In this document: positions 2,249 through 54,398 of the stretch, piece by piece
Layout of the letters: each line of letters opens with the position of its first letter
Position numbering within the stretch: the stretch's first letter is position 1
DNA from: Candidatus Omnitrophota bacterium
GTDB taxonomy: Bacteria > Omnitrophota > Gorgyraeia > Gygaellales > Profunditerraquicolaceae
Length of the DNA stretch: 64,000 nucleotides
Direction of reading: 5' to 3'
NCBI GenBank assembly: GCA_028715415.1
Contig: JAQURX010000001.1
Coordinates: 154,584 to 218,583 of the forward strand
Made by a program: the position numbers and the translations under genes
The notes under the pieces: generated by a model
What the model was told of the DNA's origin: nothing
The model's input: the letters and a program-made list of their open reading frames with translations, nothing else
Databases searched by the model: none

Positions 2249-3187
2249 ATGAAGATTGTTATTGTTGGCCCCGGAGCAATGGGTTGTTTGTTCGCAGCTT
2301 TTTTAGCCCAGAAGACTAAAGAGGAAATTTGGCTGCTTGATAAGAATAAAGAGCGGGCGCAGAGGATTAATCAAAGCGGTGTAATGGTTGAAGGGCTTTC
2401 AGGGAATTGGCAAATTAAGGTAAAGGCTACTGCTGACGCCAAAGAGATTGGTAAGGCTGATTTAGTAATGATTTGTGTCAAATCATATGATACAAAAGAA
2501 GCAATCACGGAAGCCAAGACGCTTTTTACCGATAAGACCGCCGTTGTTACTTTGCAAAATGGGATAGGAAATCTTGAGATTATTGGTGAGGTTGTTGGGG
2601 ATGCGGATATGGTGATTGCCGGTACGACAAATCTAGGCTCAACCTTGATAAGCGAAGGAAAGGTCAGGTTTGCCGGTAAAGGTGAGACGGCGATTGGTCG
2701 TCTTGATGGAAAAACTCCGGTTGAGATGCGTTTAATTCGTGAGATTTTTAATAAAATTGGTTTTGAAACTAAAATCTCCCGTGATATTAAAGGGCTCTTG
2801 TGGTCTAAGTTAATTATCAATGTTGGGATTAATCCACTTACTGCTGTTACGCGCCTTAATAACGGAGGGCTTATGGAATTTGAGGGAACGCGTAAAGTTT
2901 TAAGAGAGGCTGTTACTGAAGCGGTTCGCATCGCAAAGAGAAAAAGGATAAAGTTGATTTTTGATGACCCTTTGGCAAAGGTTGAAGCGGTTTGTGAGGC
3001 AACTGCAGCTAACGTATCAAGTATGCTTCAAGATGTTCTGCGTAAAAAACGCACGGAGATAGATTTCATTAATGGAGTCATTGTAAGGTTGGGCCAGGAA
3101 TTAGGCATCTCTGTCCCGGCAAATTCAATGTTGGTTGATTTAGTTAAGACTATTGAGGCAAGTTATAATTTTGCGGTAGAAAGATAG
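2249..3187 (+). CDS. panE: 2-dehydropantoate 2-reductase (ketopantoate reductase)
   Basis: N-terminal Rossmann motif (MKIVIVGPGAMG). ApbA/PanE-like length and C-terminal domain. Confidence 0.75.
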   Translation: MKIVIVGPGAMGCLFAAFLAQKTKEEIWLLDKNKERAQRINQSGVMVEGLSGNWQIKVKATADAKEIGKADLVMICVKSYDTKEAITEAKTLFTDKTAVVTLQNGIGNLEIIGEVVGDADMVIAGTTNLGSTLISEGKVRFAGKGETAIGRLDGKTPVEMRLIREIFNKIGFETKISRDIKGLLWSKLIINVGINPLTAVTRLNNGGLMEFEGTRKVLREAVTEAVRIAKRKRIKLIFDDPLAKVEAVCEATAANVSSMLQDVLRKKRTEIDFINGVIVRLGQELGISVPANSMLVDLVKTIEASYNFAVER

Positions 3188-3246
3188 TATATCAATAGTT
3201 TAATGAATCTGCCGTCTTTTCTCGTTCAAATTAGACTTTGCTTTAT

Positions 3247-3633
3247 GGTTTTCGCTTCCGTGCACTCAAAAATTTTTGCCGTCGGCTGCGGTTTATCCCC
3301 TTCGGGGATTTCGCCAGTAGGATTGTATAGGGGCTCAACGTCGTCGCTTCGGCTTAGCGTTCTTAAAAAAAAGCCGTCCTACGCTCCTCGTAAATCCTTT
3401 CCGACATTTGCCAAAAATTTTCTAATGTGCCTCCAGCAAAAACCATAAAGCTATAACAGTTTGCATAGTAATAAGCGTTTCAGCGGATGCCTTGGCTTGA
3501 TTCTCGCAGCATGTAGTTTGTGCGAGCGGCCATGGTTCACCCGCTATAAACTCCAGTGAGAGCGAGCGCAAACTCCAAGCGAGTCCCGCCACGGTGGGGC
3601 GGGACGAGCGGTGCTGCGAGAACAAGACAAGGC
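3247..3633 (+). repeat. Intergenic repeat element copy A; conserved core blocks interrupted by two insertions, including a GC-rich ~160 bp structured segment
   Basis: Shares ordered blocks with 60791..60990: tttttgccgt, cgtcgcttcggcttagcgttct, cgctcctcgtaaat, gccaaaaatNttctaatgtgcctNcagcaaaaacNataaa, gagaaacaagacaaggca. Confidence 0.6.
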
Positions 3634-3659
3634 AGACGCGAAAGTAATAGGTAAATTAA

Positions 3660-4496
3660 ATGTATTCCCCAAAAATAAGAAAACTACTCATAATATTCCT
3701 CATTATCGGTTGGGCGGGAACTGCTGTTTTTTTAAGTTCGCGTAAACCGGTTAAGCCTAAATCGTTGACTAGCCCGGATGTATCAATATCATCTATTAAT
3801 TCCAAGAGAACTGTTGAGCTGCTAAGTGAAGCTATTGCGTGCTTGAAGCTGCGTAAGGACAATGAAGGATTAGCGCTTTTTAATGAAGTCCTTGCAATGG
3901 ATCCTTTTAACCTGGATGCCCTTTGGGGAAAAGCAGAGATAATGAGAAGAAGGCATAAATATTCTGCTTCGGAGGAAATCCTAAAAAGGGTGATTGACGA
4001 GAATCCTACTCACGCTCCATCCTTAGTTACACTTGCTTATATAAAATATAGTGATAATAAAATAAACGAAGCTTTGGAATTAACTAATCAGGTGATTAAA
4101 AGAGGCAGTGATGATAAGGATGATATAGCGCTTGCTTATATGATGCTTGGCGCAATTAATAGCAAGCGATGTTCTGATGGATGGCTGTTCGGTAAGATTA
4201 AATATGGGACACAGATAAAACGGAATTTCGAAAAGGCTAAAGAAATTTCTCCTGACTTATCTGAAACGCATCTTTGTATGGGGACATTTTATTTAAAAGC
4301 GCCGGCTATCGCCGGAGGAGACCTTGATAAAGCAATTGAAGAACTTAATATCGCTTATAAAATGACTCCTGATTTTGCAACAGTCAATGTGCGGCTTGCC
4401 CAGGCATATAAGAAAAAGGGTGATTTGGATAAGTACAATTATTACCTAAAGCGGGCAAAGGAATTAGATCCTGAGAATGAGTTTTTAAATGAATAG
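3660..4496 (+). CDS. Membrane-anchored TPR-repeat protein
   Basis: N-terminal TM helix. Multiple TPR-like repeats (AxxxY/NP motifs). Confidence 0.55.
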   Translation: MYSPKIRKLLIIFLIIGWAGTAVFLSSRKPVKPKSLTSPDVSISSINSKRTVELLSEAIACLKLRKDNEGLALFNEVLAMDPFNLDALWGKAEIMRRRHKYSASEEILKRVIDENPTHAPSLVTLAYIKYSDNKINEALELTNQVIKRGSDDKDDIALAYMMLGAINSKRCSDGWLFGKIKYGTQIKRNFEKAKEISPDLSETHLCMGTFYLKAPAIAGGDLDKAIEELNIAYKMTPDFATVNVRLAQAYKKKGDLDKYNYYLKRAKELDPENEFLNE

Positions 4497-4505
4497 GGTA
4501 GATTA

Positions 4506-6212
4506 ATGCTTAATTTAGAGATTGCTCAGATTTTCCATGATATTGCCGATATTTTAGAGATTAAAGGAGAGAATGTTTTCCGTATTCGCGCCTATCAAAG
4601 AGCAGCGCAAACTATAGAAAGCATTCCCAATATAGAAAATTTTATCAAACAGGATAGGCTAACTGATATTGCTGGTATCGGGAAAGATCTTTCAGATCGG
4701 ATTAAAGAGTATGCTCAGACGGGTAAAATCAAGATGCTCGAGGATTTGAAAAAGAGCATTCCTGAAGGATTGCTTGATTTATTAAATATCCCTTCGGTAG
4801 GCCCTAAGACTGCAAAGCTCTTGTATGAGAAGTTAAAGATAAAAAGTATTTCTGATTTGGAAAATGCGATAAGAAAAGGGAGATTAAAGGGTATTTTTGG
4901 GATTAAAGATAAGACTGTTGAAAATATTGTTAAAGGAATTGAAATATTAAAAAGAGGCAGAGAAAGGTTAACGCTTGCCGAGGCAATGGTGGTTGGCAAT
5001 GAGTTTGTAAAGGAACTGAAAAACTTGTCGCAGGTTAAAAGCATATCAGTAGCCGGGTCTTTGCGCCGTAAAAAAGAAACAATCCGAGATATTGATATCC
5101 TTGTAATCTCAGATAATCCAAAGAAAGTTATGGATTCTTTTGTAAAGATCCCATCAGTCAGGGATATCCAGGCTTTTGGAGATACAAAGGCATCAATTCG
5201 CACTAAAGACGACGTGCAGGTAGATTGCCGGGTTGTTGAGAATAAATCTTTTGGCGCAGCCCTTTTATATTTTACCGGGTCAAAGAGCTTTAATATTAAG
5301 CTCCGCCAGTTGGCTATAAAAAAGGGTTTAAAGATAAATGAATATGGGGTATTTAAGAAAGATAAGTTTATAGGCGGGAAAACAGAAGAAGAGATCTTTA
5401 AACTTTTGGATTTATCATATATTGAGCCTGAATTAAGGGAGAATACAGGGGAAATTGAGTTTGCCCGCGAGAATAAGTTACCAAAACTAATTGAGCAAAA
5501 AGACATAAAAGGCGATTTGCACTCGCATTCAAGCTGGTCTGATGGATTAAATTCTATTGAAGAGATGGCGCAAGCTGCTAGAAAGCTCGGGTATTCTTAT
5601 ATGGCAATAACGGATCACTCTCAAAGTTTAAAGGTTGCCCGGGGGTTAAGTATCGCTGATGTAAAGAAGAAAAAAGAGGAAATTGAGAGAATAAATAAAA
5701 ATTTAAATGGTTTTAGAATTTTATTTGGCACAGAAGTTGATATTGATTCTCAGGGAAAGCTTGATTATCCCGATAGTATATTAAAAGAATTTGAAATAGT
5801 AATTGGAGCGATACATACGGGGTTTAAGCAAACACAAGCCCAGTTAACCAAAAGGATAGTGAGTGCTTGCAAAAATAAATATGTCCACATAATTGCGCAT
5901 CCTACCGGAAGGCTTTGGGGAGTGCGTGAAGCATATCCAATAGATTTAGAGGAGATATTGAAAGTAGCCAAACAGACAAATACTGCTTTGGAGATAAATG
6001 CTTTTCCTCAGCGCCTGGATTTGAATGATAGTGGTTGCCGGATGGCAAAAGAAATAGGGGTCAAAATCGCAATTGATACCGACTCTCATGCCTGCGATCA
6101 GCTTTCTGCGATGCAATTTGGCGTTGCCGTAGCAAGAAGAGCCTGGCTGTCTAAAGAGGATGTAGTAAATACTTTGCCGCTTGAAAAGCTGTTAAAGTTA
6201 GTAAAGAAATAG
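4506..6212 (+). CDS. DNA polymerase X family protein with C-terminal PHP phosphoesterase domain (PolX)
   Basis: Pol beta-like helix-hairpin-helix and nucleotidyltransferase motifs (GS..R.KETIRDIDIL). C-terminal PHP histidine motifs (HSHSSWSDG, ITDH). Confidence 0.85.
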   Translation: MLNLEIAQIFHDIADILEIKGENVFRIRAYQRAAQTIESIPNIENFIKQDRLTDIAGIGKDLSDRIKEYAQTGKIKMLEDLKKSIPEGLLDLLNIPSVGPKTAKLLYEKLKIKSISDLENAIRKGRLKGIFGIKDKTVENIVKGIEILKRGRERLTLAEAMVVGNEFVKELKNLSQVKSISVAGSLRRKKETIRDIDILVISDNPKKVMDSFVKIPSVRDIQAFGDTKASIRTKDDVQVDCRVVENKSFGAALLYFTGSKSFNIKLRQLAIKKGLKINEYGVFKKDKFIGGKTEEEIFKLLDLSYIEPELRENTGEIEFARENKLPKLIEQKDIKGDLHSHSSWSDGLNSIEEMAQAARKLGYSYMAITDHSQSLKVARGLSIADVKKKKEEIERINKNLNGFRILFGTEVDIDSQGKLDYPDSILKEFEIVIGAIHTGFKQTQAQLTKRIVSACKNKYVHIIAHPTGRLWGVREAYPIDLEEILKVAKQTNTALEINAFPQRLDLNDSGCRMAKEIGVKIAIDTDSHACDQLSAMQFGVAVARRAWLSKEDVVNTLPLEKLLKLVKK

Positions 6213-20260: not shown

Positions 20261-21355
20261 ATGCGCATTATTTCTGTTGCAAATCAAAAAGGTGGTTGTG
20301 GTAAGACTACCACGGCAATAAATTTAGCCGCTTCGTTATCAGCTAATAACAGAAAAGTTTTATTGGTGGACCTCGATCCTCAGGCGCATGCTACTTGTGG
20401 GCTTAATATTAAATTTTATTTAAGTATGTATAATGTTTTATCAAAGATTACCAATAAAAAAGCTAAGCTTGATGATATCATTCAAAAAGTTGATGATAAT
20501 TTTGATATAGCTCCTTCAAATATTGTCTTAAGTACGCTTGAGCAGGAATTAGCAGGCGAGATTGGAAGGGAGTTACGGCTTTGGGAGACTTTAAACAATC
20601 TTAAGACTGATTATGATTATATTATAATTGATTGCCCTCCAAACCTTGGAATCTTGACAATAAACGCAATTCGTGCATCAGGAGAGATAATCATACCGGT
20701 TGAGGCAAGTAGGTTCTCGTTAGAGGGAGTTGACCAGTTGGCTAGTATTGTTGATTTGGTCAGAGATAGGCTTTCTCATGAGGTAAAAACGAGGATTTTG
20801 GTAACTAATTTTGACTCAAGGCTGCGCCATTCGTTTACAATGCTTGATAAGATTAAGGTGGCATTTAAGGGTAAACTTTTTAGCAATATTGTCCATGTTA
20901 ACGTAAAATTAAAGGAAGCTCAAAATGACGGTGCCCATATTTTTAAATATGATAAATATTGCAGAGGCGCAAAAGATTATTTTAGCTTGGGCAGGGAAAT
21001 AATTACTCAAGAGAAAGCTACTAGTGTTTCTTTGGTGCTAGAAAAGAAAATGAACGAACTTTTAAAAGAAAATCTTCCAAGTTTGATTGAAGTCGGGTTT
21101 TCCGTGAATGCCCCAGAAGCAAAAGAAGTGCATATAGTTGGAGAATTCAATAATTGGAAAATTGATGAAGAAAGCAAGATGGTTAATGATGGCGGTGCTT
21201 GGAGAAAAAAGTTGAATTTGGGCAAAGGTAAATACCGTTATCGTTTTGTAGTTGATGGCGCTTGGATTGAAGATACCAGTAATCCACTAAAAGAGCTTAA
21301 CCCATACGGAACCGAAGATTCTTTGATTGAGGTTACGAATAATAATATTAAATAG
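20261..21355 (+). CDS. ParA/MinD-family ATPase fused to a C-terminal CBM48/AMPK-beta glycogen-binding domain
   Basis: Deviant Walker A ([16 protein letters not shown]). C-terminal ~90 aa match the CBM48 pattern ([10 protein letters not shown]...[17 protein letters not shown]). Confidence 0.75.
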
Positions 21356-22665: not shown

Positions 22666-23001
22666 ATGCAGCAGCGAGGAAGGCCTAAGAAGTATAGGAT
22701 AGTGAGATTGGACCCAAGAATAAGTCAATTTAGCCCAAGGGGCCGCCCGGGAAGGCCTGATGAGATTAACTTGACTATGGATGAGTTTGAGGCAATAAGG
22801 CTTGCTGATTATATGGGAATTAGCCAAAAAGAGGCGTCAAAGTCCATGAGAATATCCCAGCAGACCTTTAGCCGGGTATTAAAAAAAGCAAGGAAATTAG
22901 TCGCAAATTTTTTAATTAACGGCACTATAATTAAAATACAAGGCGGCCAATATGTAATTAGTTCCCGTGATGATTTACTCAAAGATTATGATTCAAGGTA
23001 A
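22666..23001 (+). CDS. DUF134/UPF0251 family predicted DNA-binding protein
   Basis: Family signature (RPKKYRIVRLDPRISQFSPRG...LTMDEFEAIRLADYMGISQKEASKSMRISQQTFSRVLKKARKLVA). Confidence 0.6.
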   Translation: MQQRGRPKKYRIVRLDPRISQFSPRGRPGRPDEINLTMDEFEAIRLADYMGISQKEASKSMRISQQTFSRVLKKARKLVANFLINGTIIKIQGGQYVISSRDDLLKDYDSR

Positions 23002-23083
23002 AGAAGCCCACCAAAAAGCCACCAAAGTAAGAAGTACTTAATCCTTAAATACCCGAATTGGTACCAGAAATGAATATAAAACA

Positions 23084-23111
23084 ACTTCCTATAATATATC
23101 TTATGTTAACT
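23084..23111 (+). other. Candidate dif site (XerC/XerD chromosome dimer resolution site)
   Basis: ACTTCCTATAA-TATATC-TTATGTTAACT. Closely matches the dif consensus (XerD arm TTATGTTAAAT in E. coli). From memory it is also very close to the Bacillus subtilis dif ACTTCCTAGAATATATATTATGTAAACT. It sits exactly where gene orientation switches from + to -. Confidence 0.65.
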
Positions 23112-23289
23112 TGAGTATAGGTGAAAGATTGAATTTAACCCTTTTGCTTATATGTGGTTATGGTAATCCGATTTTTAGCTGTGGAAAACCCGTTTTCCAT
23201 TTACTTATGCTTACTTATTATATTCTTGCCTTACATTCTACTGAAGAAACATGAAAATATATAATTAGATTTACTCTGGATTTGTGCTC

Positions 23290-24432
23290 TTACATTTTCC
23301 TGGTGAAAGCGGTTATTGCAGGATAGATTAAGTTATCGCCATAGCGGTTGTTTATCTTATCAACGGCTTTTATAAGCGCTTCCCTTCTTTGATCCTCTTT
23401 GAATAAAAAGGTATAATTCTGTTCTTGAAGCTTACTGCAATTTACCCCTATCGCTCTTATTTTTGGCTTATTTTGGGCTGTTTTATCCATGATTTTTAGG
23501 CATCTTTCGCAGATTACACATCCATCATTGGTAGCTTCTTGATAGGTTTTTTGGGCCCCAAAATTGCCTATTTCTGGGCCATTTAGCCAAAGATGCACAG
23601 TTGAGGCTGTTAGATTACTGCTTCTTAAGCGCTCTGCAACCATCTCGGATAAAAGCCTGATCCAAGCTTTTATAAATACCGGGTTTTGTGAGGCCATGGG
23701 AAACGTATATGAATGGCTTATTGATTTAGGTTTTGGCTCATTGCTTAAGTCAAAATGCCCATTTGAGTGCAGTGATCCGTAAATGTTAAGGCCGTATTGG
23801 CCCAATCTTTCTTTTAAGAAGCTTGGGTTTTTCTGGTATAAATCAAGGCAGGTTTTAATGCCTGATTCATATAATGCTTGCCCAATTTTTCCTCCCATTC
23901 CGCAGAGTTTATTAATTGTAGTTTTATCTAGGATAAGGTTTAAATTTTCTTCGGTTAGTATAGTTATGCCTTTTGGTTTTTTTATTTTTGAGGCAAGTTT
24001 TGCCAGTATCCAGTTTTTTGCTATACCTATTGAAGCTGTGATGTTAAAGTTCTTAAATATTTCTTCTTGAATTTCTTCGGCTACGGTTCTCAAATCAGGT
24101 GTGTTAGGGATGTCTATTTGAAATTCATCAATTGAGGCATAGTTAACTGCAAATCCATATTCTTTGAGTAATTCTAAAATTTGCGTGGATGTCCAGATAT
24201 ACTTTGACTGGTCTGCTGCTACAAATTCTAAGTTTGGGCATATTTTAAAAGCTTCAGCTGAGGTCATTCCTGAAGAAATTCCGTATGCTTTGGCTTCATA
24301 GCTTGCAGCGCAAACTACAGTATGCATTTTGTTTCCACGCGAACCTACAATCAGGGGTTTATTTTTTAATTTAGGATTAATTGCCTGCTCAATAGATGCA
24401 AAAAAAGCATCCATATCAATATGAATAATCAT
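23290..24432 (-). CDS. dinB: Y-family DNA polymerase IV
   Basis: N-terminal catalytic motif (MIIHIDMDAFFASIEQ). Y-family palm/fingers/little-finger length. Lies in an operon downstream of lexA. Confidence 0.85.
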   Translation of the reverse strand: MIIHIDMDAFFASIEQAINPKLKNKPLIVGSRGNKMHTVVCAASYEAKAYGISSGMTSAEAFKICPNLEFVAADQSKYIWTSTQILELLKEYGFAVNYASIDEFQIDIPNTPDLRTVAEEIQEEIFKNFNITASIGIAKNWILAKLASKIKKPKGITILTEENLNLILDKTTINKLCGMGGKIGQALYESGIKTCLDLYQKNPSFLKERLGQYGLNIYGSLHSNGHFDLSNEPKPKSISHSYTFPMASQNPVFIKAWIRLLSEMVAERLRSSNLTASTVHLWLNGPEIGNFGAQKTYQEATNDGCVICERCLKIMDKTAQNKPKIRAIGVNCSKLQEQNYTFLFKEDQRREALIKAVDKINNRYGDNLIYPAITAFTRKM

Positions 24433-24436
24433 GTTT

Positions 24437-24751
24437 TTAATGTAATATTTTATTAATTCGCCAGCCGAATGTGGTATTGTTGAAGGAAATTTGGTAGGTA
24501 TCTAGTGCTGTGGTTACGGAAAAATAAATTATTGTTTCTTTGCCGGATTTTTCCTGCCAGGTGAAATTAGTTTTTTCAATCTCATATTGTTTTTTGTTCC
24601 ATATGAATGTGTGCGGATAAATTTTAGCGTTTCTAAACCAGCTTAAGACTTCAATTTTTTCGTCTAAAGCATCTGTATTGGTATTGTAATCTGTTTGCGG
24701 GATATTTCTATCCCAGCGTGCCTTTGGGCTAAATCCGGATGGTATTTCCAT
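24437..24751 (-). CDS. Hypothetical protein cotranscribed with lexA and dinB
   Basis: Tight spacing of 12 bp and 5 bp to its neighbours. No recognisable motifs. Confidence 0.4.
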   Translation of the reverse strand: MEIPSGFSPKARWDRNIPQTDYNTNTDALDEKIEVLSWFRNAKIYPHTFIWNKKQYEIEKTNFTWQEKSGKETIIYFSVTTALDTYQISFNNTTFGWRINKILH

Positions 24752-24762
24752 GGGCGCAAGCT

Positions 24763-25356
24763 CTAGTATTTTCTTATTACGGTGATTAATTTCCCGATTA
24801 CAGTAAAATCTTTGCGTATGGGCTCGTAATTTTTGTTTGCAGGTTCCAGGTATATTCCTTTAGTATTATTAATAAGCCTTTTTAGGGTTACTTCATTGTT
24901 TTCTAAAAGTGCTGCGATAATATCTCCATTTTCAGCATCAGGTTTCTTTTTAATAATTGCAAAGTCTCCTTGGATTATTCCTGCATCAATCATGCTGTCG
25001 CCAGTTACTTTTAAGGCAAAAACATCATCATAACTTAAGCGTCCAAGAAATAAATCGTTTGGATCAATATAGCCTTGTATATCTTCGTAGGCTACGTTGG
25101 GTTTACCTGCAGCTATGGAGCCTAATATAGGAATTTTCCCAAAGTTGCTATTAGTTAATTCAATGCCGCGTGATTTAAGATTTGTGCGTTTAAGGTAGCC
25201 TTTGTTTTCCAAAACAGCTAAATAATCTCTTACTGTCCCGGTTGAAGAAAAATCTAAGGCTTTGGCAATTTCCCTTATTGTTGGCGGAAGGCGCTTCTGG
25301 ATTCTTTGTTGAATGAAGTTTAGGACTTTTTGTTGTTTAGGGGTAAGTTCTTCCAT
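24763..25356 (-). CDS. lexA: LexA repressor
   Basis: N-terminal winged HTH (MEELTPKQQKVLNFIQ). C-terminal S24 peptidase with Ser (GDSM) and Lys (IKKKP) and the Ala-Gly cleavage site (SIAAGKP). The start is set at an internal Met so that the upstream palindrome is intergenic. Confidence 0.85.
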   Translation of the reverse strand: MEELTPKQQKVLNFIQQRIQKRLPPTIREIAKALDFSSTGTVRDYLAVLENKGYLKRTNLKSRGIELTNSNFGKIPILGSIAAGKPNVAYEDIQGYIDPNDLFLGRLSYDDVFALKVTGDSMIDAGIIQGDFAIIKKKPDAENGDIIAALLENNEVTLKRLINNTKGIYLEPANKNYEPIRKDFTVIGKLITVIRKY

Positions 25357-25369
25357 GGGTAGGAATATA

Positions 25370-25385
25370 CCACACATTTGTGTGG
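25370..25385 (-). promoter_or_regulatory. Candidate LexA operator (perfect palindrome)
   Basis: CCACACATTTGTGTGG, 14-29 bp upstream of the proposed lexA start. Confidence 0.5.
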
Positions 25386-25435
25386 TCTGTCAAGGGTTTT
25401 CTTAAAATAATAACCCCTCTCCCCTGCCGTATTTT

Positions 25436-25936
25436 TTACTTGGATTTAGTTAAATCAATCATTTTTACCTTGCCATGAATGGTAGAGGAGGCCGGATATG
25501 TCAGGGTAGCTAGTTTTTCGGTAGCCCCCCTTATGCGTTCACAGTTATCTTTTATGGCTGTAAGCTTAGTTTTTATTTCTTCGGTAGTTTTATCTAAGTC
25601 AAGCTCTAAAAGTTCAAGGTTGCCTCTTATAACAAAAAGCGGGTTGTTAATTTCATGGCTTAATGCCAGGGTGGTCTGTACTACAGTAGTTAATTTATTC
25701 TTTTCTATCACATCTTGCATCATGGACCAGAATAGTTTTTTTCCAACAAAAATACCCAGCATAAAGATTATTACCGTAGTAAACATTATGTACCCAACTT
25801 CTCCGGAGAATATCTTAAATGATGCAACCTTATTTACAAGAAGATAAACACATACCAAGAGCGGTATTATGCCGGTTAGGCATATTGAAGTAGTAAATTC
25901 ATTTTTTTTCTTATTTATAAGTTCTTTTGTTTCCAT
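25436..25936 (-). CDS. Membrane protein with HisKA (DHp) domain only; no HATPase_c catalytic domain
   Basis: Two TM helices then an H-box (LSHEINNPLFVIRGNLELLE). The protein ends ~60 aa later. Confidence 0.5.
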   Translation of the reverse strand: METKELINKKKNEFTTSICLTGIIPLLVCVYLLVNKVASFKIFSGEVGYIMFTTVIIFMLGIFVGKKLFWSMMQDVIEKNKLTTVVQTTLALSHEINNPLFVIRGNLELLELDLDKTTEEIKTKLTAIKDNCERIRGATEKLATLTYPASSTIHGKVKMIDLTKSK

Positions 25937-25969
25937 TTAAAGCCTCCTGTGCAGGGGGGATAAGTGGTG

Positions 25970-26437
25970 TTATTTTTCCCAATTATTTACATCGTCTTCA
26001 TTGCCTTCAGTGGCATCTTTTCCTGATGAATATAAATCATAATCTTTTCTGTTGGTGCCCGGGCTTTTGTAATGATAAGGATTACCCCATGGGTCAAGCG
26101 GCTTTTTCTCTAAATATGGGCCTTTCCAGTTTTTTGCCGAAGAGGGCGCGGTTATAAGAGCTTCAAGCCCCTCTTCTGTGGTTGGGAAAGCGCCGTTATC
26201 TAGTTCATACATCTTAAGCGCAGTAGCTATGTTAAGCTCGACATCAGCTTTGGCAACTCCTTTTCTTGCTTCTTCGGATCTGCCTGTTAACCTCGGCACG
26301 ACCATTGCTGCTAAAACACCTATAATAATGACTACTAACATCAGCTCTACCAGGGTAAAAGCTTTTCTTTTTAACATTTTTTCCTCCATTGTCACTTTAG
26401 TATTCAATCCAATTCCTGATCTTTCCTTTATCATCAA
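25970..26437 (-). CDS. gspG: Type II secretion major pseudopilin GspG
   Basis: Prepilin N-terminus (MLKRKAFTLVELMLVVIIIGVLAAM) with Glu+5. GspG C-terminal pattern (WKGPYL...DPWGNPYHY). The probable true start is an internal Met (~26377). Confidence 0.8.
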   Translation of the reverse strand: MMIKERSGIGLNTKVTMEEKMLKRKAFTLVELMLVVIIIGVLAAMVVPRLTGRSEEARKGVAKADVELNIATALKMYELDNGAFPTTEEGLEALITAPSSAKNWKGPYLEKKPLDPWGNPYHYKSPGTNRKDYDLYSSGKDATEGNEDDVNNWEK

Positions 26438-31418: not shown

Positions 31419-35373
<3,955 letters not shown>

Positions 35374-35382
35374 TTATTTTTT

Positions 35383-36867
35383 TTAAGTGTTTTTATTTAA
35401 CAATTCCGTTTTTACAGCTTTAAAGAAATCGGCGATCTTTTTATCCAGCTCCATTTTTATTTCAGGGGTAAGCTGTTTTTTATCTTTAATTTGTTTAATA
35501 AGTTCCGGACTTTCTTTGTATAAATATGGACAGAAGCCTTCTATATACTTTTTCAAGAACTCAACAGGAACTGCTTCTAGGATTTTTCTTTTAAAAGCGT
35601 AAAAAAGCACAATCTCTTCTTCTAACGGGATAGGATTGTTATTAGACTGCATTAATATCTGCCGCAGGGTTTCTCCGCGTTGTAGTTTCTCCGAAGCTTC
35701 TTTAGAAAGCCGGGTTCTAAGTTTTGTTAAGCGCAGCATTTCTCTGTATTGGGTATACTCAAGCCTAAGCCCGCTTCCAAGCTCTTTAATCGCTGGATAC
35801 TGGACTTTGCTTCCAATACGGGAAACTGAAAGCCCGACGTCAATTGCGGGCTTAAATCCTTCCCGGAATAGCGGGGTGCTGATATAAATTTGGCCATCAG
35901 TAATTGAGATAAGATTAGTCTGAATGTACCCGGTAATATCTCCTTGTAATGTTTCAGCAATAGGCAGGAATGTCATTGAGCCGCCACCTAATTCTTTTCT
36001 CAGCTTGGCCGCTCGTTCAAGAAGCTGGGAATGCAGATAGAAAATATCTCCCGGGTAAGCTTCTCTTCCGGGTGAGCGCTCAAGGAGTAATGACATTTGC
36101 CGATAGATCCATGCATGTTTTGTTAGATCATCAAATACAACGAGTACACTTTTTCCCGCATACATAAAGTATTCTCCCAAGGCGGATGCAACGTATGGGG
36201 CAAGGTATTGTTCGGCTGCAGGAGTGTCTGCGGAAGCAGAAACGACAATCGTATATTTTAAAGCGTCTTTATCCAAGAGAGAGTAAATAACTTTTTTTAA
36301 CGCTGTCTCCGGACCGCCTATCCAGCAATAAATACAAATAACATCTTTATCTTTCTGGTTGATGATAGAGTCTATCCCAATGCTTGATTTACCGCTTTGT
36401 CTATCCCCGATAATAAGCTCTCTTTGGCCTTTTCCAACAGGGATGATGAAATCAACAATTTTAACTCCGGTAAGCATAGATTCGGTAACCGGTTCTCTTT
36501 CCATTACTCCGGGAGCTTGCCTAAAAACAGGGTAAAAATCGCTTGCTGCAATTTCACCTTTATTATCTATCGGTTCGCAAAGGCTGTTAACAATCCTTCC
36601 GATAAACTTTTCTCCAACAGGGACATTAATGATCTCGGCAAGCGAGCTAACAATTTCTCCTACTGAAACTTTGTTTTCTTGCCCAAAAATAATTACATTA
36701 ACATCTTCTTGGGTAAAGCCGATAACCATTCCTTTGATGCCTTGGGGGAATTGAATTAATTGACCGTAGACGCAGGAGGGTAAACCATCAATCTTTATGA
36801 TGCCGTTTTTTACTTCTTTGACTGTTCCTACCTCTTTTATGTCTAATGTTGGTATGTTTATACTCAT
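35383..36867 (-). CDS. atpA: F1 ATP synthase alpha subunit
   Basis: P-loop GDRQSGKS. 494 aa. Confidence 0.9.
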   Translation of the reverse strand: MSINIPTLDIKEVGTVKEVKNGIIKIDGLPSCVYGQLIQFPQGIKGMVIGFTQEDVNVIIFGQENKVSVGEIVSSLAEIINVPVGEKFIGRIVNSLCEPIDNKGEIAASDFYPVFRQAPGVMEREPVTESMLTGVKIVDFIIPVGKGQRELIIGDRQSGKSSIGIDSIINQKDKDVICIYCWIGGPETALKKVIYSLLDKDALKYTIVVSASADTPAAEQYLAPYVASALGEYFMYAGKSVLVVFDDLTKHAWIYRQMSLLLERSPGREAYPGDIFYLHSQLLERAAKLRKELGGGSMTFLPIAETLQGDITGYIQTNLISITDGQIYISTPLFREGFKPAIDVGLSVSRIGSKVQYPAIKELGSGLRLEYTQYREMLRLTKLRTRLSKEASEKLQRGETLRQILMQSNNNPIPLEEEIVLFYAFKRKILEAVPVEFLKKYIEGFCPYLYKESPELIKQIKDKKQLTPEIKMELDKKIADFFKAVKTELLNKNT

Positions 36868-36877
36868 AATTAGAGGT

Positions 36878-37597
36878 TTAACAGCCTTTTAGGTATGGTA
36901 TTGTTTTTTGTAATTTGTTCTTAAGGCTGCCATCAATAATGAATTCGCCTATCTGGATGATAATCCCTGCAATCAAATCAGGATTTATACTTTCTTCCAT
37001 GGTAATGTCCTGGCCTAATTTAATTGAGAGGGTATTTTTTAAACGCGATATTTCCTTTTCGTTTAATTTAAAACATGAAACGATTTTAATTTTATTTGAT
37101 TTTACGGTTATTCTTGTTTTGTCAAGGTTTTCTACTTCTTGGATAAGTTCATCAATTAGCTGATATTGCAATTGCTCATTATTTTTTCCGGTAAAAGCAA
37201 GCTTTAACATTTCCATTGAAAGCTCTAAGGCCTTGTTCTTTACGTCGGAAGCTATATTTTTGCGGATTCGTTCTATCTCATCATTCCCTTGAGTAAGTAA
37301 CTTTTGTTTTTCAAGCTTTGCATCTTCTTCTGCTTTCTGGCGCAAAGAATCACAAAGCAACCTTGCTTCATCAACGATTTTTTTGGAATCAGCCCTTGCT
37401 TTATCAAATTCCGCTAATTTTAATTTTCTTGCTTCTTCAAGTTCTTTTTTTACTTGAGCTTCTCTTGCCGATAGCTCAGCCTGTAGTTCTTTAAGCCGGG
37501 TTTCCGCGTAGCCAAGATGTTTTTTATAGAGGATCCTAAGTAAGAATAGCAATCCGAAAACAGCAGCTACTTGCAGGATAATTAATTGGATAATCAT
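36878..37597 (-). CDS. atpF: Fused Fo b / F1 delta (OSCP) subunit
   Basis: N-terminal TM helix and long coiled coil (b-like). C-terminal delta signature (INPDLIAGIIIQIGEFIIDGSLKNKL). Confidence 0.65.
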   Translation of the reverse strand: MIIQLIILQVAAVFGLLFLLRILYKKHLGYAETRLKELQAELSAREAQVKKELEEARKLKLAEFDKARADSKKIVDEARLLCDSLRQKAEEDAKLEKQKLLTQGNDEIERIRKNIASDVKNKALELSMEMLKLAFTGKNNEQLQYQLIDELIQEVENLDKTRITVKSNKIKIVSCFKLNEKEISRLKNTLSIKLGQDITMEESINPDLIAGIIIQIGEFIIDGSLKNKLQKTIPYLKGC

Positions 37598-39799: not shown

Positions 39800-42700
39800 T
39801 TATTTATACTCATACCAAGTCTGCGTGACTGGTTTATTGGCAATATTATCCACCATTTTCTTATTTAATTCAAGCGTTGCTTTTAATTCTTGAGACTTAT
39901 TCTTTAAATAATCAATATCATTCTTTTTCTCAGCAGTGACCTGATATAGTTTTTCTAGATTAACTCCTGCATCTCCGGAAATCTGCTTGATTTCTTTTGA
40001 TACGCTCTTTAACTGGCTGTAAATTGAGTCTAACACGTTAGCAGATGCAGCTGCATCTTTAACATCTTTTACTAGGCTCTTGCCTAATTGTGAGAGCGCT
40101 GTTTCAATTAAGGAGAACTGAGTTTTTAAGTTGTCTGCAACATCTCTTAAGGTTGAGATGCTTGAAGTAGCCCCCATGACCGATGCAACGTTTCCGGCTA
40201 TTTGTTCAAGGTCAGCTTTGATTACTGAGATGATCATAGCATCCACCGTTCCGTAAGTAGCCTCAGAGCAAACTATTGTAAAGTCTCCTTTGCCCCATCC
40301 ACCATCGAATAAGACAGGGAACTCGTATATAGCTACTTCAGAAGTAGAACTGCTAGTTATCGGTTTCATATTTCCGGTTAAAACTAATTTGTTTTCTGCA
40401 TCATAGACTTGAATAGTTGGCTGAACGCCGGTATATGAACGGAAGCGGATAACCAAATCTTTTGTTGAACGAATAGTGTTATCTCTATTAAGAATTTCAG
40501 ATTTTTTAATTGTAGTTACTTCTTTTTGAATCGTTTGTACTGCTGGAACGATTGTGCTCGTAGTCGTAGATAATATCTGTGAAGTATCACTCTTGACAGA
40601 GGCAACTTGAGTATCTATTTTATCTTCAATTGACTTCTTAGCTTTACCTACTTTATCCGCAATGTCATCAACCTTTGTTTCAATTGTTGTTGCTGACTGT
40701 TGTAAGCTTGTTAGTTGTGAAGTTTGCTGTGCTTGTTCAACAGCCTGTGAAATATCTATTGAGGCTCCTGAAGTATATTGTCCTGCACTGTAGTTAATAA
40801 TTGCTTTTACGAAATAATGTTTTCCTGTGGCTAAACCGGTAGCTTGCCAATTAAACCAGAATATGCCTTTATTGTCACGATAATATAAGCTTCCCATTCC
40901 AGGTTCAGTAGTAGATAATGTTTTTACTAAGGTTCCATTATCATAGATTTCCAAGGTAGCTGATTTGAGGTCGTTTAAAATTTGTTGTTTGATTGTATCA
41001 CTGTCAGAATCAGATGGCCCCATTAATTTTCCTCTTCTCTCTAACCATGTGGAAGCTCTTAGTGTGTCTGTAGCTGGATTATAGCTGGTTGATAATAAAA
41101 CGTGCCATTCAACCTGAGCGCTTATTTCATTTTCAAGAAGAACTGTTTGTATTGTATCACCATCAGCGCGCCAATCAGCTGCGCGTGCAATGTAGCCTTT
41201 TTTGGACCATCTGGTAATATAATTTCCAGCTGGGTAGTCCCTAGTTTGAGGTGAAGATAAAAGAACAGCGTTAATGTTCGTAATATCAACTAACCATCCG
41301 GTTTGGTCTTCTTTTACTCCTAATTCGTCCAAATGTCCATGTGTATCGTAGTCAACAACGTCCCAAGTGATATGGTAATAGTCTGCTTTGAATTCAGGAG
41401 ATTCAATAAAAACTGTAGGATCATTTGCATTGGTTATTTTAAATCTACAGTGTTCACTCCTTGGTTCCGGAATTGTCATATTGCATTGGCCTGCTGTAGC
41501 GCCAGTATTATTGATTGTTACGGTTTTAGTATTATCCCATGAGGTACCATTAAAATATTCAAATATAACCTGTGAGATACTGCCTTTTGTAGTCCAAGTA
41601 AACGTCTCTGTTTTTCCTACGATCTTTCTCTTTTGAGCTTCGGTATCTAAGTTAGTGATTACGAAAGCACCTTTAAACCTTATATCATTTGTTGAGCTAG
41701 CAGTAATATCGGCCCTTTCGTTGTTATTTTGGTCAATCATTGTTACTTTGATGCGTATTTTGCGGCTAATTAATACATCATTTGGAATCGTCCAAGAGAA
41801 ACTATTAGTTTGGTTAGGTGCACAGTCAATAGTAGCAATAGGATATGTGATTGCAGGAGTATCTGATTCAAAATATGAAAGGCGTACTTTATTCAAGGAT
41901 AAGCCTTTTGTTCTCCACTGAATAGGAAGTATTTCTCCAACCTCATATTCTGTTTTTGCTTCTGTTCCTAAAGGAGCAATTAGTTCAAGAGCTGGCTTAG
42001 GAAGAATAATTACGCTCTTTAGTTCAGACTTGACCTTTAAGTTTAGAGGGCCATAATTTGATAAGCCGTCCTTAGCTATTAGCTGAATTGGAATTTCTGG
42101 TTGGCCTTGTCTGCCTAATAAAGAGAATAAATCAGGTATTCCTGTTCCTCCAGGTCCGGCCCATGTGTATGAACCCATACCAGCCACATTGTCATTAGGT
42201 AAACCAAAGGCAATAGAAGTAAATGAGCCGTCCGGCGGGGTCGCTGAAGTATCAACGGTATATTGCAAAGCAATACTGTCAGGGTTGATGTAACCTTCAG
42301 TAGTCCATGTTATTGTTGGCTTCTCTCCAACTGCCCAATATACTCCTGTGCCAGAAGGATATGTAAGATTTATAAGCGGAATACCTATTTCAAAGATTTC
42401 TTCGTTGCTTGTTTCCCCAAAGGCGTTAGGTTCATCGGATTTCCACTTAACGTTATCAGTTATCAAGATTTTACAATTATTAGATGGAATGGTATTCTTC
42501 TGAATATCCCAAAGGAAAGTCCCTGTGTTGCTTAAATGAAGAGCAACAGGTGAACCGTCTTTATTAAGAATATCTTCATAAGGCCCTCCATTAACTGAAT
42601 ATTGAATTCTTAAGTCGTTGTGTGTAACTCCTCCATTATCATGCCAAAGAATAGGGTATTGTTTTCCTATGCGTAGGCAGTTTGTGCCTCTTTGTACATG

Positions 42701-45700
42701 GTTTGGTGAGTCTATGAATAACTGTGGTTTAGGAAGCACAATAAATGGTTGTTCAGTGTCTCCAAATACTTTGTAGTTTGTGCCTGCTCCTAATCCCCAA
42801 TAAATATCGTTAACTCTTACTTTTACTAACCCTTGAGCTTCAAGTGGCAAAGTCCAATTTATCGAGGTAGTTGTTGGCCCCCAATATTCAGGATGACCTG
42901 GATCATATGGGACTGGTGGATTAATAGTTTGACTAGTTATAAAATTATCTTTTGACCATTGGACTATGAAAGGTCCTCTTAATTTACCAAGCGAAGTCCA
43001 ATTGATAGTTCTAGTTTCTGTTACTGTCCATGGCTGGTTGCCATCAATTCTGGAGACTGTTATTACAGGGTATAGGATAGAGAATAGCTTTGATTCTCTT
43101 TTGTATTCCGTTGGTATGCTTGGCAATTCTATAGGCCTTTTAATTACTATATAGGCGGTTCCTGGAGAATAGGTGTCACCTACTGTCCAGTCAAAAGAAC
43201 CTTCAGAATTCAATGGCCCGCCAGTATCAATGTTATGCCAATTTGTTCCATCAGTATAAGTTAGCACAACTCCATCTGGAATGTAACCTGCTGTAGTCCA
43301 TTGAATTGTGTAAGTATCACCCATGTATAGAGTTTCAGAAGCAGCATCCGGATTCGGTTTAATAAAAACAAGCACAGGCTTACCAACTCTGAAATTAATT
43401 TCTTTAGATGCGCCTGAACCTCCATCTGCTATTGGGTCATAAATTCTGATAGTTGCTTTATCATTTTGATCATCAGGATCGTTAGGTAAAGCATCAGTTG
43501 GGACCATCCAGTCAAAACTCCCCTGGTCTGTATCTAGAATGCTGGAGCTTGTAATGGGGTTGTGAATAGCAGTGAATTCGTTGTTCGTTCTATTTCTCCA
43601 TTCAAAAACCAGTTTCTTAATTGCTTTTTGTGCTCCTCCAGTTGTTTGCCAAGATATTGGATGGCCTGTTGTTCCGACGACCCATGAGTCGTTTGTAGTC
43701 GGAGAAACAATAGTTATCGTTGGTTTTGTAATTGTAAAGTTGCTATTTGATGGATCGGATACATCCTCGGGTAGCCAAGAAGTATCAACAATTTTTAGTT
43801 TAACTTGCTGCAAGGAGTTTTGTCCTTCAGGAACGATATCTCTTGGAACTTGCCATGGAAGCGTGCATTGTGAATAACCAACCTCATCTACTTTTACAAT
43901 ATCCCCATTATTAAGGTTAGTTATTTTTATCCATGAGCCTGCGGCTCCACCGTTAGTTGAGTAATAGAATTCCAAAGAGTCATTTTTGATGGCTCCGATA
44001 TTGCGCCATACAATATTATGGGTTCCATGAGCATACCAAGTTTCTGTGCCATTTGGAACTTGTAAAGCTATGTGTGGAGTACCGAAGCTTAGTTTTCCGG
44101 ATAAACCAGATACTTTTGGTGTAGAAGTAGGAGAATCTTTAATTTCGACTTTTATATAGGCATTAAAAGTTTGTGTTGTTGGAATTTGGAGATATGTTGA
44201 ACCAGTATTATCTATTGCTGCTAGAGGACAAGTCCAAGGCCCATTCTCTCCGGCTGTTGAATAATAAATGTATGTTTTACCTGAATAATCAGGCCCGGGT
44301 GTACCTCCAATCTTAATAAAGTTATTACCGAAAGTTTCCCATTTGATTTCATATATTTTACCCATAGTTAAGGTTGCGCCGTCAGTTTGGTCAGGCGGGC
44401 TAATGATGTTTAATTTTGGCAGATTAAGGATTTCAAATGGCCCTACAGAAGTTTGAGGCTTTCCTTGTAGGGTGGTTGTGCTCCCGTTTTCTCCTTCATC
44501 TGTTATTCTTAACCAAACATTTTCACCAACAGCTTCAAGAGGAATATTTGTCCATGTATATTTTCGCTCTACATTTGAAACATCGCTATCGATAGTTGTC
44601 CAGGTGCCGTTAATTCCATTAGTTGAATCAATAGAATAGTCAATTTTTAGATAGTTACTTATTGTTCCGCTTGTGCTCCATTCAATAATATTGGTGTCTC
44701 CCTTAACCCATTTTGTAATAAAAGGAGATGGTGAGCTTATGCTTATTGTAGGTTTGTTTACATAGAAATCAATAGATTCTCCGGTACAAGGATTACTTTC
44801 AATTGTTCTTGCCCCATTTTGAGCAACTCTATTAGACAATGCCGTGCCAATAACCTGAACTCTGACAGGTAAGTCTATTCTTGGAGGAATTGCATCTAAA
44901 GGAACAGTCCATGTATAGCTTCCAATCGTAGAAGAATTTGGAGTAGGTCCGACAGTACCTATAGGAATAGGAGTAGGAGTAATATCTCCATAAGAGGTTT
45001 CTTCAGCTGCGTTATATTTTAGATATTTTAGAGTAACATTAGGCCCAAACATTTTTTGGTTCGTTGCCCAGTTAATTACTAATGGCTCTCCTGCTCTTAT
45101 TGCTGTTAAGCCTTGCGGAAGAGTTACGGTAATATTAGGGGCTGGAACAATGGCAAATGATCCGTTTAGGGTATCAATTATGGTTGCTCCTACGCTATCC
45201 CAATATTTCCCCGCGTCTACAGGTGAGAATATTTTAATCTGGCATTCATTGGATATTGTTGCAGGTATAGCCCAGCTTTTGTTTCCGCTGGCAGCGTCTA
45301 AGTTTGCACCAATAAATGTCCAGGTAGAAAAGACGTTTTGAGCGTTTTTATATCTATAATATATTGAAAGAGGATGTATTTCTTTTCCCGGAGGTAAAGG
45401 CGGTAATCCATAAACATCCCAGAGAATGAAGTTTTCTTTCCCTGCTTCCCAGATATCGCCGTTTATCGGAGAGGTTAATTTTAATGACAGGACTCTTAAG
45501 TCTGTTGGAGAATCCGCGACAATGTGGTCAAAATCATTAGAAGTTATTCTTATGCGAGATTGCTCTGAAAGAATTAAAGGAATAGTTGTCGCATCCGAAG
45601 GCACTGTCCATGTCAATAAACCATTGTTGGGTGCGTTTTCGGCGATTGTATAGTAATCATTTTTATCTAGACGATGAAGTTGAATTTTAACCGTGTTAGT

Positions 45701-53390: not shown

Positions 53391-54398
53391 TTATTTATTT
53401 GGCACATTAAGTTTTTCCTCAAGCTGTTTTGTTTTTTCTTTTTCAATCGCAAGCCTTCTTTGCATGGCTTCCAAAGAAACTTTATCAGCGCGGTATTTCT
53501 CATCCAAATTCTTTATTATAACTGAGTTTTCATGTGCTAGTTTAAGGTTAATTTCACCTTGTTTCTTAAGCATCTCTTTTTGAAGATTTCTTTTAAGATT
53601 AAAAGTGACTTGAGAAAAGTATACAGATATAAAGATCAGTGCTATTACTGATAAAGCCCCAGTAACAAGAAAGAACCTTTTTTTTCTTTTAAATTCCGCA
53701 TCAGGTATAGAGCTATCAATTTCAGATTTATATTTTTCAACTTCAAGTTCAACTTTTTCTATAAAACCGTTTGTGCCAAGTACTGTCTTTTTATTGAGCT
53801 CTTTATTAATAAAACCACTTCTATCTAAAGAAAATTCTTTGATAAATTCTTGATGATCTTTATTTTTTAGATATTTTTTAGTTTCTTCAATTTCACTTGA
53901 GATATTAATGTCTAAACTTGGTTTACCTAAATAATTAGCGAAACTACAATAAGGATAAAGTTCCGGCTCTTTAACAATATTTAGGATTTTAGGATTAAGA
54001 TGAATATAGGAAGCAACCTCTAAAAGATGAGTTTCTTTTTCAACTAAAACCAGTTTAAACCTTTCTTGGAAAAGATGGCCTTTTCTTTCATATTTTGAAT
54101 TGAAATATTTTGTATAGTTTGCATTTAGGTCATGCATAATATCAGAAATTGTTAGTCCAGCTTTTAATTCAATCAATAAATGTAGATGGCTTGGGATCAG
54201 GCAGAAGGCGAATAATTTAAAACCATATTGTTCTTTATATTTCTTTAATAATTCAGCGTAGGTTTTATAATCTTGGACATCTCTAAAAATTTCTTCATTA
54301 TTATCACCGCGGCTTGTTACGTAGTATAGTGCGCCTTCAATAAATTTTTTAGGGACTTTAATCATTTTAAGCCACCTTTTCTTTTTAATGCGTTGCAT
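53391..54398 (-). CDS. IS200/RAYT-like Y1 HuH transposase-domain protein fused to a TM helix and C-terminal coiled coil
   Basis: N-terminal ~140 aa with Y1 motifs (YYVTSRG...FAFCLIPSHLHLLIEL and catalytic-Tyr region GHLFQERF...VASYIHLNPK). Then TM FFLVTGALSVIALIFISVYF and a coiled coil. Confidence 0.6.
   Translation of the reverse strand: MQRIKKKRWLKMIKVPKKFIEGALYYVTSRGDNNEEIFRDVQDYKTYAELLKKYKEQYGFKLFAFCLIPSHLHLLIELKAGLTISDIMHDLNANYTKYFNSKYERKGHLFQERFKLVLVEKETHLLEVASYIHLNPKILNIVKEPELYPYCSFANYLGKPSLDINISSEIEETKKYLKNKDHQEFIKEFSLDRSGFINKELNKKTVLGTNGFIEKVELEVEKYKSEIDSSIPDAEFKRKKRFFLVTGALSVIALIFISVYFSQVTFNLKRNLQKEMLKKQGEINLKLAHENSVIIKNLDEKYRADKVSLEAMQRRLAIEKEKTKQLEEKLNVPNK

Follow-up and report, generated by a model that had tools for sequence, protein, structure and literature searches.

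The site described here lies in a convergent intergenic gap of 288 bp (23002..23289) that is bounded by open reading frame (ORF) stops on both sides. All coordinates refer to the window, by which we mean the whole 64-kb stretch of DNA that was analysed. On the left, the gap is preceded by a plus-strand gene for a DUF134 (UPF0251) HTH protein (22666..23001; Pfam PF02001, E = 1.9e-27). On the right, it is adjoined by the stop of the minus-strand dinB gene (23290..24432), which encodes DNA polymerase IV and forms an operon with a 104-aa ORF and lexA (23290..25377, minus strand).

All 22 non-shadow long ORFs to the left of the site are encoded on the plus strand and all 32 to its right on the minus strand, opposite-strand ORFs having been left out of these counts as shadows inside Pfam-supported genes. 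The site is therefore located at a convergent gene-orientation switch, as is expected of a dif of the terminus region. The genes on the left encode YbeY, RecO, PanE, PolX, ApbE, CorA, PanB, a class II aminoacyl-tRNA synthetase and PPDK, as well as a sigma-70 factor, tRNA-Arg, GH57 and a ParA-like ATPase. On the right, dinB, the 104-aa ORF and lexA are followed by type IV pilus/type II secretion genes and genes for the alpha, gamma and beta subunits of the F1 ATPase, and this side also encodes a 4513-aa Kelch/LamG protein, a secretin, a radical SAM protein, DUF4416 and PilZ proteins. The context of the site is thus one of chromosomal housekeeping genes. Pfam searches found no xerC, xerD or ftsK gene in the 64-kb window, and a tblastn search with E. 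coli XerD gave no match there. With the same query, more than 30 loci of uncultured Bacilli yield an XerD-like gene within a few kb of dif, so the search itself works.

Sequence of the dif-like site

Within the gap, the plus-strand 28-mer ACTTCCTATAATATATCTTATGTTAACT (23084..23111) has an 11-6-11 layout, composed of an XerC-type arm, ACTTCCTATAA (23084..23094), a central crossover region, TATATC (23095..23100), and an XerD-type arm, TTATGTTAACT (23101..23111). Published dif sites of B. subtilis and E. coli, taken from Kono et al. 2011 (PMC3025954, BMC Genomics 12:19), served as references. When the B. subtilis dif, the CodV/RipX site (ACTTCCTAGAATATATATTATGTAAACT), is used as a query on the window, it returns 23084..23111 with exactly three mismatches (25/28), where no such match is expected from 100 shuffles. 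The two sites share the length of 28 bp and the 11-6-11 architecture, each arm is identical at 10/11 positions (the XerC-type arm when compared with ACTTCCTAGAA), and in both the inner parts of the arms form a palindrome of four Watson-Crick pairs, positions 8-11 pairing with positions 18-21. They differ by the substitutions G9T, A17C and A24T in the site reported here.

Similarity to the E. coli dif of the XerCD-FtsK system (GGTGCGCATAATGTATATTATGTTAAAT) is less even. The architecture is the same and the XerD arm differs from its E. coli counterpart, TTATGTTAAAT, by one base (10/11), but the XerC arm matches at only 6/11 positions and the centre at 4/6, for an overall identity of 20/28. The 28-mer has a single match in the 64-kb window at up to three mismatches, and none in 100 dinucleotide-preserving shuffles. 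An earlier note on this DNA had placed a 28-mer of 11-6-11 XerC/XerD architecture at this position, with an XerD arm 10/11 identical to that of E. coli and about 25/28 identity to the B. subtilis dif; the site is found there, on the plus strand, and the latter figure is exact when set against the published sequence. The second dif-like 28-mer for which the note proposed a search is absent from the window. Its label "Bacillus-type" holds for the sequence but not for the organism, a relative of the Omnitrophota whose genes on either side of the site align, among the matches listed below, with Omnitrophota metagenome-assembled genomes (MAGs) only.

Conservation of the site in other genomes

One genome per GTDB species was scanned with the pattern ACTTCCTATAA-N6-TTATGTTAACT, which selects for the arms by design. 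The same 22 arm bases were recovered in at least 120 stretches, every one from a different assembly and once in each. The matches listed include many Candidatus Omnitrophota MAGs, Bacillaceae, uncultured Bacilli, Izemoplasmatales and some MAGs labelled Planctomycetales or Muribaculaceae, and in an Alkalihalobacillus contig of 3.8 Mb the site lies at 49% of the length. In the complete Omnitrophota chromosome OY759724.1 (3,360,633 bp) it falls within the block 3,224,001-3,232,000. Among these listed matches, the window aligns across the genes flanking the site to the left and right (64-72% nucleotide identity) with Omnitrophota MAGs only. In the indexed collections, the exact DinB protein of the window occurs only in a Logan contig of 2,995 bp; the organism is present in the reads of SRR22315506.

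An independent sample was obtained from metagenome loci retrieved by the DinB protein alone, and not by the arms. It comprised nine loci at 50-66% DinB identity, two of which end at the gene, leaving seven that are informative. The site is present in all seven, 190-210 nt past the DinB stop and with 22/22 arm bases, while the central hexamers are of four kinds (TATATC, TATATA, TGTATC and TGTACC). In the alignment of the gap, 25 of the 28 site columns are invariant and the adjoining DNA is mostly scrambled; both arms are invariant across the alignments, and the central region is the sole variable part of the site among relatives. Purifying selection has thus acted on the arms at an orthologous locus and left the centre freer, and this combination of invariant arms and a less constrained crossover region is the pattern that would be expected of an Xer core.

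The presence of a Firmicutes-type dif in an Omnitrophota organism agrees with the cross-phylum finding of Kono et al. 2011 (PMC3025954), in which many non-Firmicutes phyla were best seeded with a dif profile of the Firmicutes type. That survey did not cover the Omnitrophota, and its prediction failed in Planctomycetes (PMC3025954).

Gene orientation and nucleotide skew around the site

When loci from Omnitrophota and Bacilli with at least 2 kb on both flanks are oriented on dif, genes lie on the plus strand to the left and on the minus strand to the right in almost every locus. The composition of the window does not follow this orientation. Raw GC skew of the plus strand runs at about +0.2 as far as 23 kb and at about 0 thereafter, without becoming negative, and the cumulative curve flattens at 23 kb but still rises slowly to 64 kb, with no maximum at the site. 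At third codon positions, the plus-strand GC skew (GC3 skew) is +0.25 +/- 0.03 on the left, where it is positive in 21 of 22 genes, and +0.15 +/- 0.03 on the right, where it is positive in 28 of 32 genes (p = 8e-6 vs 0). The corresponding AT3 skew is -0.14 on the left and -0.13 on the right. The sign of the skew at third positions is shared by fourfold-degenerate sites, by intergenic DNA and even by codon positions 1 and 2, and GC3 skew is uniform along the 41 kb on the right, including four 3-kb pieces of the giant ORF. On either side of dif the plus strand is enriched in G and T at weakly selected sites, a leading-strand signature. Raw skew falls at 23 kb because the purine excess of coding strands (codon positions 1 and 2) switches sides there.

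For the coding strand, the GC3 skew of the genes on the left is +0.23, vs -0.21 for those on the right (Mann-Whitney p = 1.6e-8). These opposite values argue against forks meeting at dif, since converging forks would give leading-strand genes, and therefore equal skew, on both sides. A recent inversion is ruled out as the source of the asymmetry, because coding-strand skew is invariant under gene inversion. The closest relatives (L147, L148 and L154; DinB 60-66% identical) have the same skew pattern over +/-10 kb, and two further loci (L150 and L152) show its mirror image, in which the genes on the right look "leading" and those on the left are neutral. Unlike the Omnitrophota site, the Bacillaceae control loci (L002, L019 and L107) have a third-position skew that flips sign at dif; many MAGs of uncultured Bacilli are without a skew flip within a few kb of dif.

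The earlier note had proposed a candidate replication terminus here, at a strand switch where 23 kb of plus-strand genes meet more than 40 kb of minus-strand genes, and had expected a GC-skew extremum at about 23.1 kb. The orientation switch is there in full within the 64-kb window, but the compositional switch is not: third-position skew is positive on both sides, the cumulative curve has no maximum, and within the window dif does not coincide with a skew shift point. The compositional switch must lie more than 41 kb to the right of dif or elsewhere outside the window. According to Kono et al. 2011 (PMC3025954), dif lies close to, and not at, the GC-skew shift point, with offsets that span 0-1.39% of the genome at 1 sigma and reach 3% in outliers. 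A distance of 41 kb in a genome of 1.5-3.4 Mb corresponds to 1.2-2.7%, which is at the upper end of the known offsets and not outside them. Because published offsets reach 3% of the genome, the missing skew switch at the site does not exclude it from being a dif.

Most likely, then, the site marks the gene-orientation switch, that is, the long-term terminus region, and present fork convergence is displaced from dif. We lean slightly towards placing the present convergence point more than 41 kb to the right of dif, with the fork of the leftward replichore running through dif. The fork trajectories that we infer in this way around dif would be expected with unequal replichores and no fork trap. 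Under displaced convergence, the F1 ATPase genes on the right would be transcribed against the direction of replication, an unusual arrangement for genes of this kind. Owing to this difficulty we retain, as unlikely but worth keeping in view, the alternative that the site is both dif and the true point of fork convergence, the skew flip being missing because of, for example, a lineage-specific, un-ameliorated replichore rearrangement or a bias unrelated to replication. Under this alternative the highly expressed F1 ATPase genes would be co-oriented with the fork arriving from the right, and it would suit both the finding that almost all related loci have genes converging on the site (across 23 + 41 kb or more in the window) and the fall of raw GC skew by about 0.2 at 23 kb. 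Yet the coding-strand GC3 skew, which is inversion-proof, differs in sign between the two sides and is even along 41 kb; positions 1 and 2, fourfold-degenerate sites and intergenic DNA agree with it in sign; and its recurrence in relatives at 60-66% DinB identity means that the pattern is old. Displaced convergence accordingly remains the reading that we prefer.

Short oriented motifs were also searched. Sites consisting of the XerD arm only (XDS-like) number 4 in the window vs 2.6 expected, which is no enrichment, and the KOPS/SRS search found GGGNAGGG twice in the window, below chance. Over 443 kb of pooled Omnitrophota flanks, GGGNAGGG is polarised 38:5 toward dif and GAAGAAG 149:27. This polarity is uninformative, because any purine-rich word points likewise where coding strands converge.

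DUF134 and a conserved non-coding module flank the site

The most constant neighbour of dif is the one on its left: about 41 Omnitrophota loci have a DUF134 homologue that terminates immediately before dif, with amino acid identities as low as 43%. The neighbour on the right varies, being the dinB-lexA operon in one subclade vs DUF2062, radical SAM, DUF4416 or PilZ genes elsewhere. Between lexA/HisKA and DUF2062, the window contains about 36.7 kb of genes additional to those of locus L092, comprising the pilus/secretion genes, the F1 ATPase and the giant protein. This block is not a recent import, since its skew equals that of its neighbours.

On the XerD-arm side of dif, about 130 nt of the gap (23154..23282, plus strand) form a conserved non-coding module. 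An nhmmer profile of 139 columns matches only beside dif and in one orientation, at 31 loci in 1.8 Mb of retrieved sequence, 12 of which were not part of profile building. The alignment of relatives resolves the module into plus-strand blocks: a GTTA block about 47 nt past dif (23156-23160), a T run followed by CTGTGGAAAAGC at about 60-78 nt (23170-23189), TTTACTTATGCTTACTTATT at about 88-105 nt (23200..23219; consensus TTTACTTAAACTTACCGC), a TTGACATT block at about 120 nt (23229-23237) and, at about 155-175 nt, a GGATTTTTTGCCTCTAATCG block (23274-23289). TTTACTTATGCTTACTTATT contains two direct CTTAC-type repeats about 10 bp apart, or one helical turn, and ACTTAC is found in 24 of 47 loci vs 2.0 expected. 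The plus-strand sequence TGTGGAAAA (23180..23188), 69 nt past dif, is the reverse complement of the DnaA-box-like TTTTCCACA and forms the 5' arm of a local hairpin (23181..23200; dG -5.9 in the window). The motif TGTGRAWAA occurs 67-70 nt past dif in 26 of 47 Omnitrophota loci vs 1 of 71 other loci.

The module tracks dif and not DinB: L111, L047, L080 and L039 all carry it with DUF2062 or radical SAM as the right neighbour, and the DinB-bearing locus L092 lacks it. A conserved small ORF in the gap is ruled out by 1-nt indels between relatives. Scans of the window's gap for sigma-70 promoters and intrinsic terminators gave results at or below chance, and the TTGACA-like block of the module comes without a conserved -10. 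In several relatives, plus-strand hairpins followed by T runs are found about 60 and 160 nt past dif, so the DUF134 operon may be transcribed through dif.

Alternative readings of the site

Attachment sites of IMEX elements (CTX-phi attP, difA/difB of the gonococcal genetic island) use dif-like cores, and the same two arms as those reported here are found in 24 IMG/VR contigs, often at contig ends and with very diverse centres. The site could accordingly be taken for the attachment or resolution site of an Xer-exploiting mobile element (an IMEX, a prophage or a plasmid with a cer/psi-like site) and not for a site of host dimer resolution, a reading to which the about 36.7 kb of extra DNA to its right relative to L092 and the conserved flank of about 130 nt, loosely like the accessory sequences of plasmid sites, would lend themselves. 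We regard it as very improbable. An IMEX or prophage attachment site needs two dif-like sites and mobile-element genes, whereas the window contains no second such site (the next best has 6/22 arm mismatches, which is chance level) and, by Pfam, no phage, integrase or plasmid genes in its 64 kb. The extra block is parted from dif by the dinB-lexA operon and has the skew of its neighbours, and the viral contigs share only a 28-30-mer with the window. Moreover, the site keeps an orthologous position between housekeeping genes, with conserved synteny, in dozens of species.

The plasmid sites ColE1 cer and pSC101 psi consist of an Xer core and about 150-180 bp of one-sided conserved DNA needed for function, these accessory sequences sitting on the XerC side. 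Conserved DNA likewise flanks the Xer core on one side here, but the site is chromosomal and the module is on the XerD-arm side, so a plasmid multimer-resolution site of the cer/psi type is rejected. A role of the module in recombination, suggested by this likeness to cer and psi, would be pure conjecture.

We give just as little credence to the idea that the 28-mer and the module are a single element unrelated to recombination, such as a small RNA, a 3' UTR or a regulatory region of the DUF134 operon, with an incidental likeness to dif. The gap is conserved well past the 28-mer, a TATAAT hexamer lies inside dif, and the plus-strand hairpins and T runs of several relatives would fit a transcript that enters from the DUF134 side and runs through dif. 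However, the same 22 arm bases occur in unrelated phyla without the module and without DUF134; there the site is a single-copy feature of convergent gaps, with an XerD-like gene a few kb off in many uncultured Bacilli. RNAalifold, run on both strands with the whole module and with its first 66 nt, gave no consensus RNA structure, and single-sequence folds disagree. A search of the window and 13 relatives found no Rfam family at E <= 1 or at the gathering score, and an incidental identity of 25/28 to a validated dif is not credible. Finally, an oriC is rejected on account of the convergent genes, the lack of a sign change in skew and the absence of a DnaA-box cluster (one box in the gap; 3 in the window vs 7.2 expected).

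Discussion

The 28-mer at 23084..23111 is very probably the chromosomal dif of a bacterium related to the Omnitrophota, because it is nearly identical to validated sites, unique in the window, kept at an orthologous position, with arms that do not vary and a centre that does, and placed between convergent genes. It has four of the features that define a chromosomal XerC/XerD dif: the architecture, a sequence like that of validated sites, arms held by purifying selection at the orthologous locus, and the position at a convergent switch. Like the B. subtilis dif, it lies in a convergent gap of the terminus region, and within the window it is the only such site. Unlike the B. subtilis site, it belongs to a host from the Omnitrophota and not the Bacillota, and it is linked to a DUF134 gene and a conserved downstream module.

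From homology with the B. subtilis CodV/RipX-dif and E. coli XerCD-dif systems, we infer Xer binding, recombination and FtsK dependence at this site. The recombinases would be a tyrosine pair of the XerC/XerD type, with genes outside the window, that occupies the two 11-bp arms; strand exchange across the 6-bp centre would then resolve dimeric chromosomes when the cell divides, presumably with FtsK in control. By analogy with E. coli, too, resolving dimers near the terminus is the role to be expected.

More tentatively, and with considerable doubt, the DUF134 gene, dif and the module of about 130 nt, with its DnaA-box-like TGTGGAWAA 67-70 nt past dif and two CTTAC repeats about 10 bp apart, might form a terminus unit of the Omnitrophota. 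The module would then be a putative accessory or regulatory element of chromosomal Xer recombination or of terminus organisation, for example a platform for the DUF134 HTH protein or for DnaA. Gene orientation would be anchored on dif across the phylum, and the point of fork convergence would drift to either side by lineage.

Nearly every bacterial chromosome has a dif site, and convergent genes at dif are ordinary. The core finding is in itself ordinary; our search of the accessible literature found no paper joining the Omnitrophota with a dif site, and a search for DUF134 gave nothing relevant. The finding extends the Firmicutes-type dif consensus, unchanged, into the Omnitrophota. In a phylum known only from metagenome bins, in which origin and terminus are otherwise unmarked, dif provides a landmark of the terminus region that serves assembly checking, replichore analysis and growth-rate (peak-to-trough) estimates. 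The mismatch between the switch in gene orientation and the skew at synonymous sites is a clean, small example of how dif and fork convergence can uncouple, and the linkage of DUF134, dif and the module offers a testable lead on accessory factors at chromosomal dif sites.

A non-coding module and a DUF134 gene accompany dif in Omnitrophota

On the XerD-arm side of dif (the 28-bp Xer site at 23084..23111), directly after the site, lies a conserved non-coding module of ~130 nt (23154-23282), with blocks at 23156-23160, 23170-23189, 23200-23219, 23229-23237, and 23274-23289. The module was matched in 31 Omnitrophota loci, exclusively beside dif within the 1.8 Mb of sequence covered. It contains a DnaA-box-like TGTGGAWAA at a fixed distance of 67–70 nt after dif, together with two CTTAC repeats spaced ~10 bp apart. 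Comparison of the module to Rfam matched no family, and a search for a consensus RNA structure found none.

The other side of the site is marked by a gene. In the window, the DUF134 (UPF0251, HTH) gene occupies 22666-23001, and comparison across the fetched loci L009-L154 placed the end of a DUF134 gene directly upstream of dif in ~41 Omnitrophota loci, among the matches listed. These homologues share amino acid identity as low as 43%. The neighbouring gene on the opposite side of dif differs between loci. The DUF134-dif linkage is much deeper than ordinary synteny among these Omnitrophota MAGs.

Dif surroundings in other lineages and in viral contigs

Eight Bacillaceae loci (L002, L006, L019, L026, L075, L094, L107, and L108) carry a conserved hairpin ~20–60 nt to the left of dif, on the XerC-arm side, with a GTCTCA/TGAGAC-type stem and AAGTTTACTTA in the loop; the loop core, TTTACTTA, is similar to the Omnitrophota CTTAC-repeat block. 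In Izemoplasmatales and similar loci (L024, L030, L046, L067, L087, L089, L098, and L099), the words TGTGGATAA/TGTGGAAAA occur 36 nt ahead of dif, 39 nt beyond it, or at both positions, and there contribute the arms of small GTGGA...TCCAC hairpins with a terminator-like appearance. In >30 loci among L004-L119, from uncultured Bacilli, Erysipelotrichaceae, and Acholeplasmatales, a XerD-like gene with 35–42% identity to E. coli XerD lies no more than a few kb from dif; across the Omnitrophota loci, the flanks that were fetched contain no XerD-like gene.

Both dif arms of the window were also recovered unchanged from 24 viral or proviral IMG/VR contigs (L122-L145), where the central hexamers are very diverse and the arms frequently lie ≤100 nt from the contig end. 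These contigs have no relation to the window and count as candidates for Xer-exploiting elements or host-junction fragments. Assemblies end within dif or ~100 nt from it at nine loci (L001, L016, L023, L025, L044, L045, L076, L146, and L151), including the Logan contig L001, which corresponds to window 23090-26084 and whose first base falls 6 nt into dif. Such breaks may result from a 28-mer and module common to co-occurring species, or from low coverage at the terminus.

Gene content flanking the site

To the left of dif, a plus-strand gene (20261-21355) encodes a fusion of a ParA/MinD-type ATPase with a glycogen-binding CBM48/AMPK1_CBM domain at the C-terminus and adjoins a GH57 glycoside hydrolase gene, a pair kept on this side of dif across many Omnitrophota loci. 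To the right, all on the minus strand (31419-37597), F1 ATPase genes (b/delta-like subunit, alpha, gamma, and beta) lead straight into T2SS-E/PilB, T2SS-F/PilC, and PilM/N genes, the junction being a 4-nt overlap; neither an F0 a or F0 c gene nor an epsilon gene turned up in the Pfam scans. Further along, a c-di-GMP-I riboswitch (54497-54579, minus strand; 66 bits vs. a gathering score of 35) precedes the gene for a 335-aa protein that includes an IS200-like Y1 transposase domain (53391-54398, minus strand), and next comes a giant 4513-aa Kelch/LamG/DUF2341 ORF (39800-53341, minus strand). Two PilZ-domain proteins are encoded at 63.1–64.0 kb.

Much of this right flank is extra relative to L092, a dif locus with DinB, in which the gene order (2508-5947) passes from dinB and a 104-aa ORF straight to DUF2062, radical SAM, DUF4416, and PilZ genes. 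Between dinB/104-aa ORF and the DUF2062 side, the window holds ~36.7 kb of additional DNA (24.4–61.0 kb) encoding lexA, HisKA, type IV pilus/T2SS genes, F1 ATPase, the 4513-aa protein, TPR proteins, and a secretin. The difference is a lineage-specific gain or loss adjoining the terminus.
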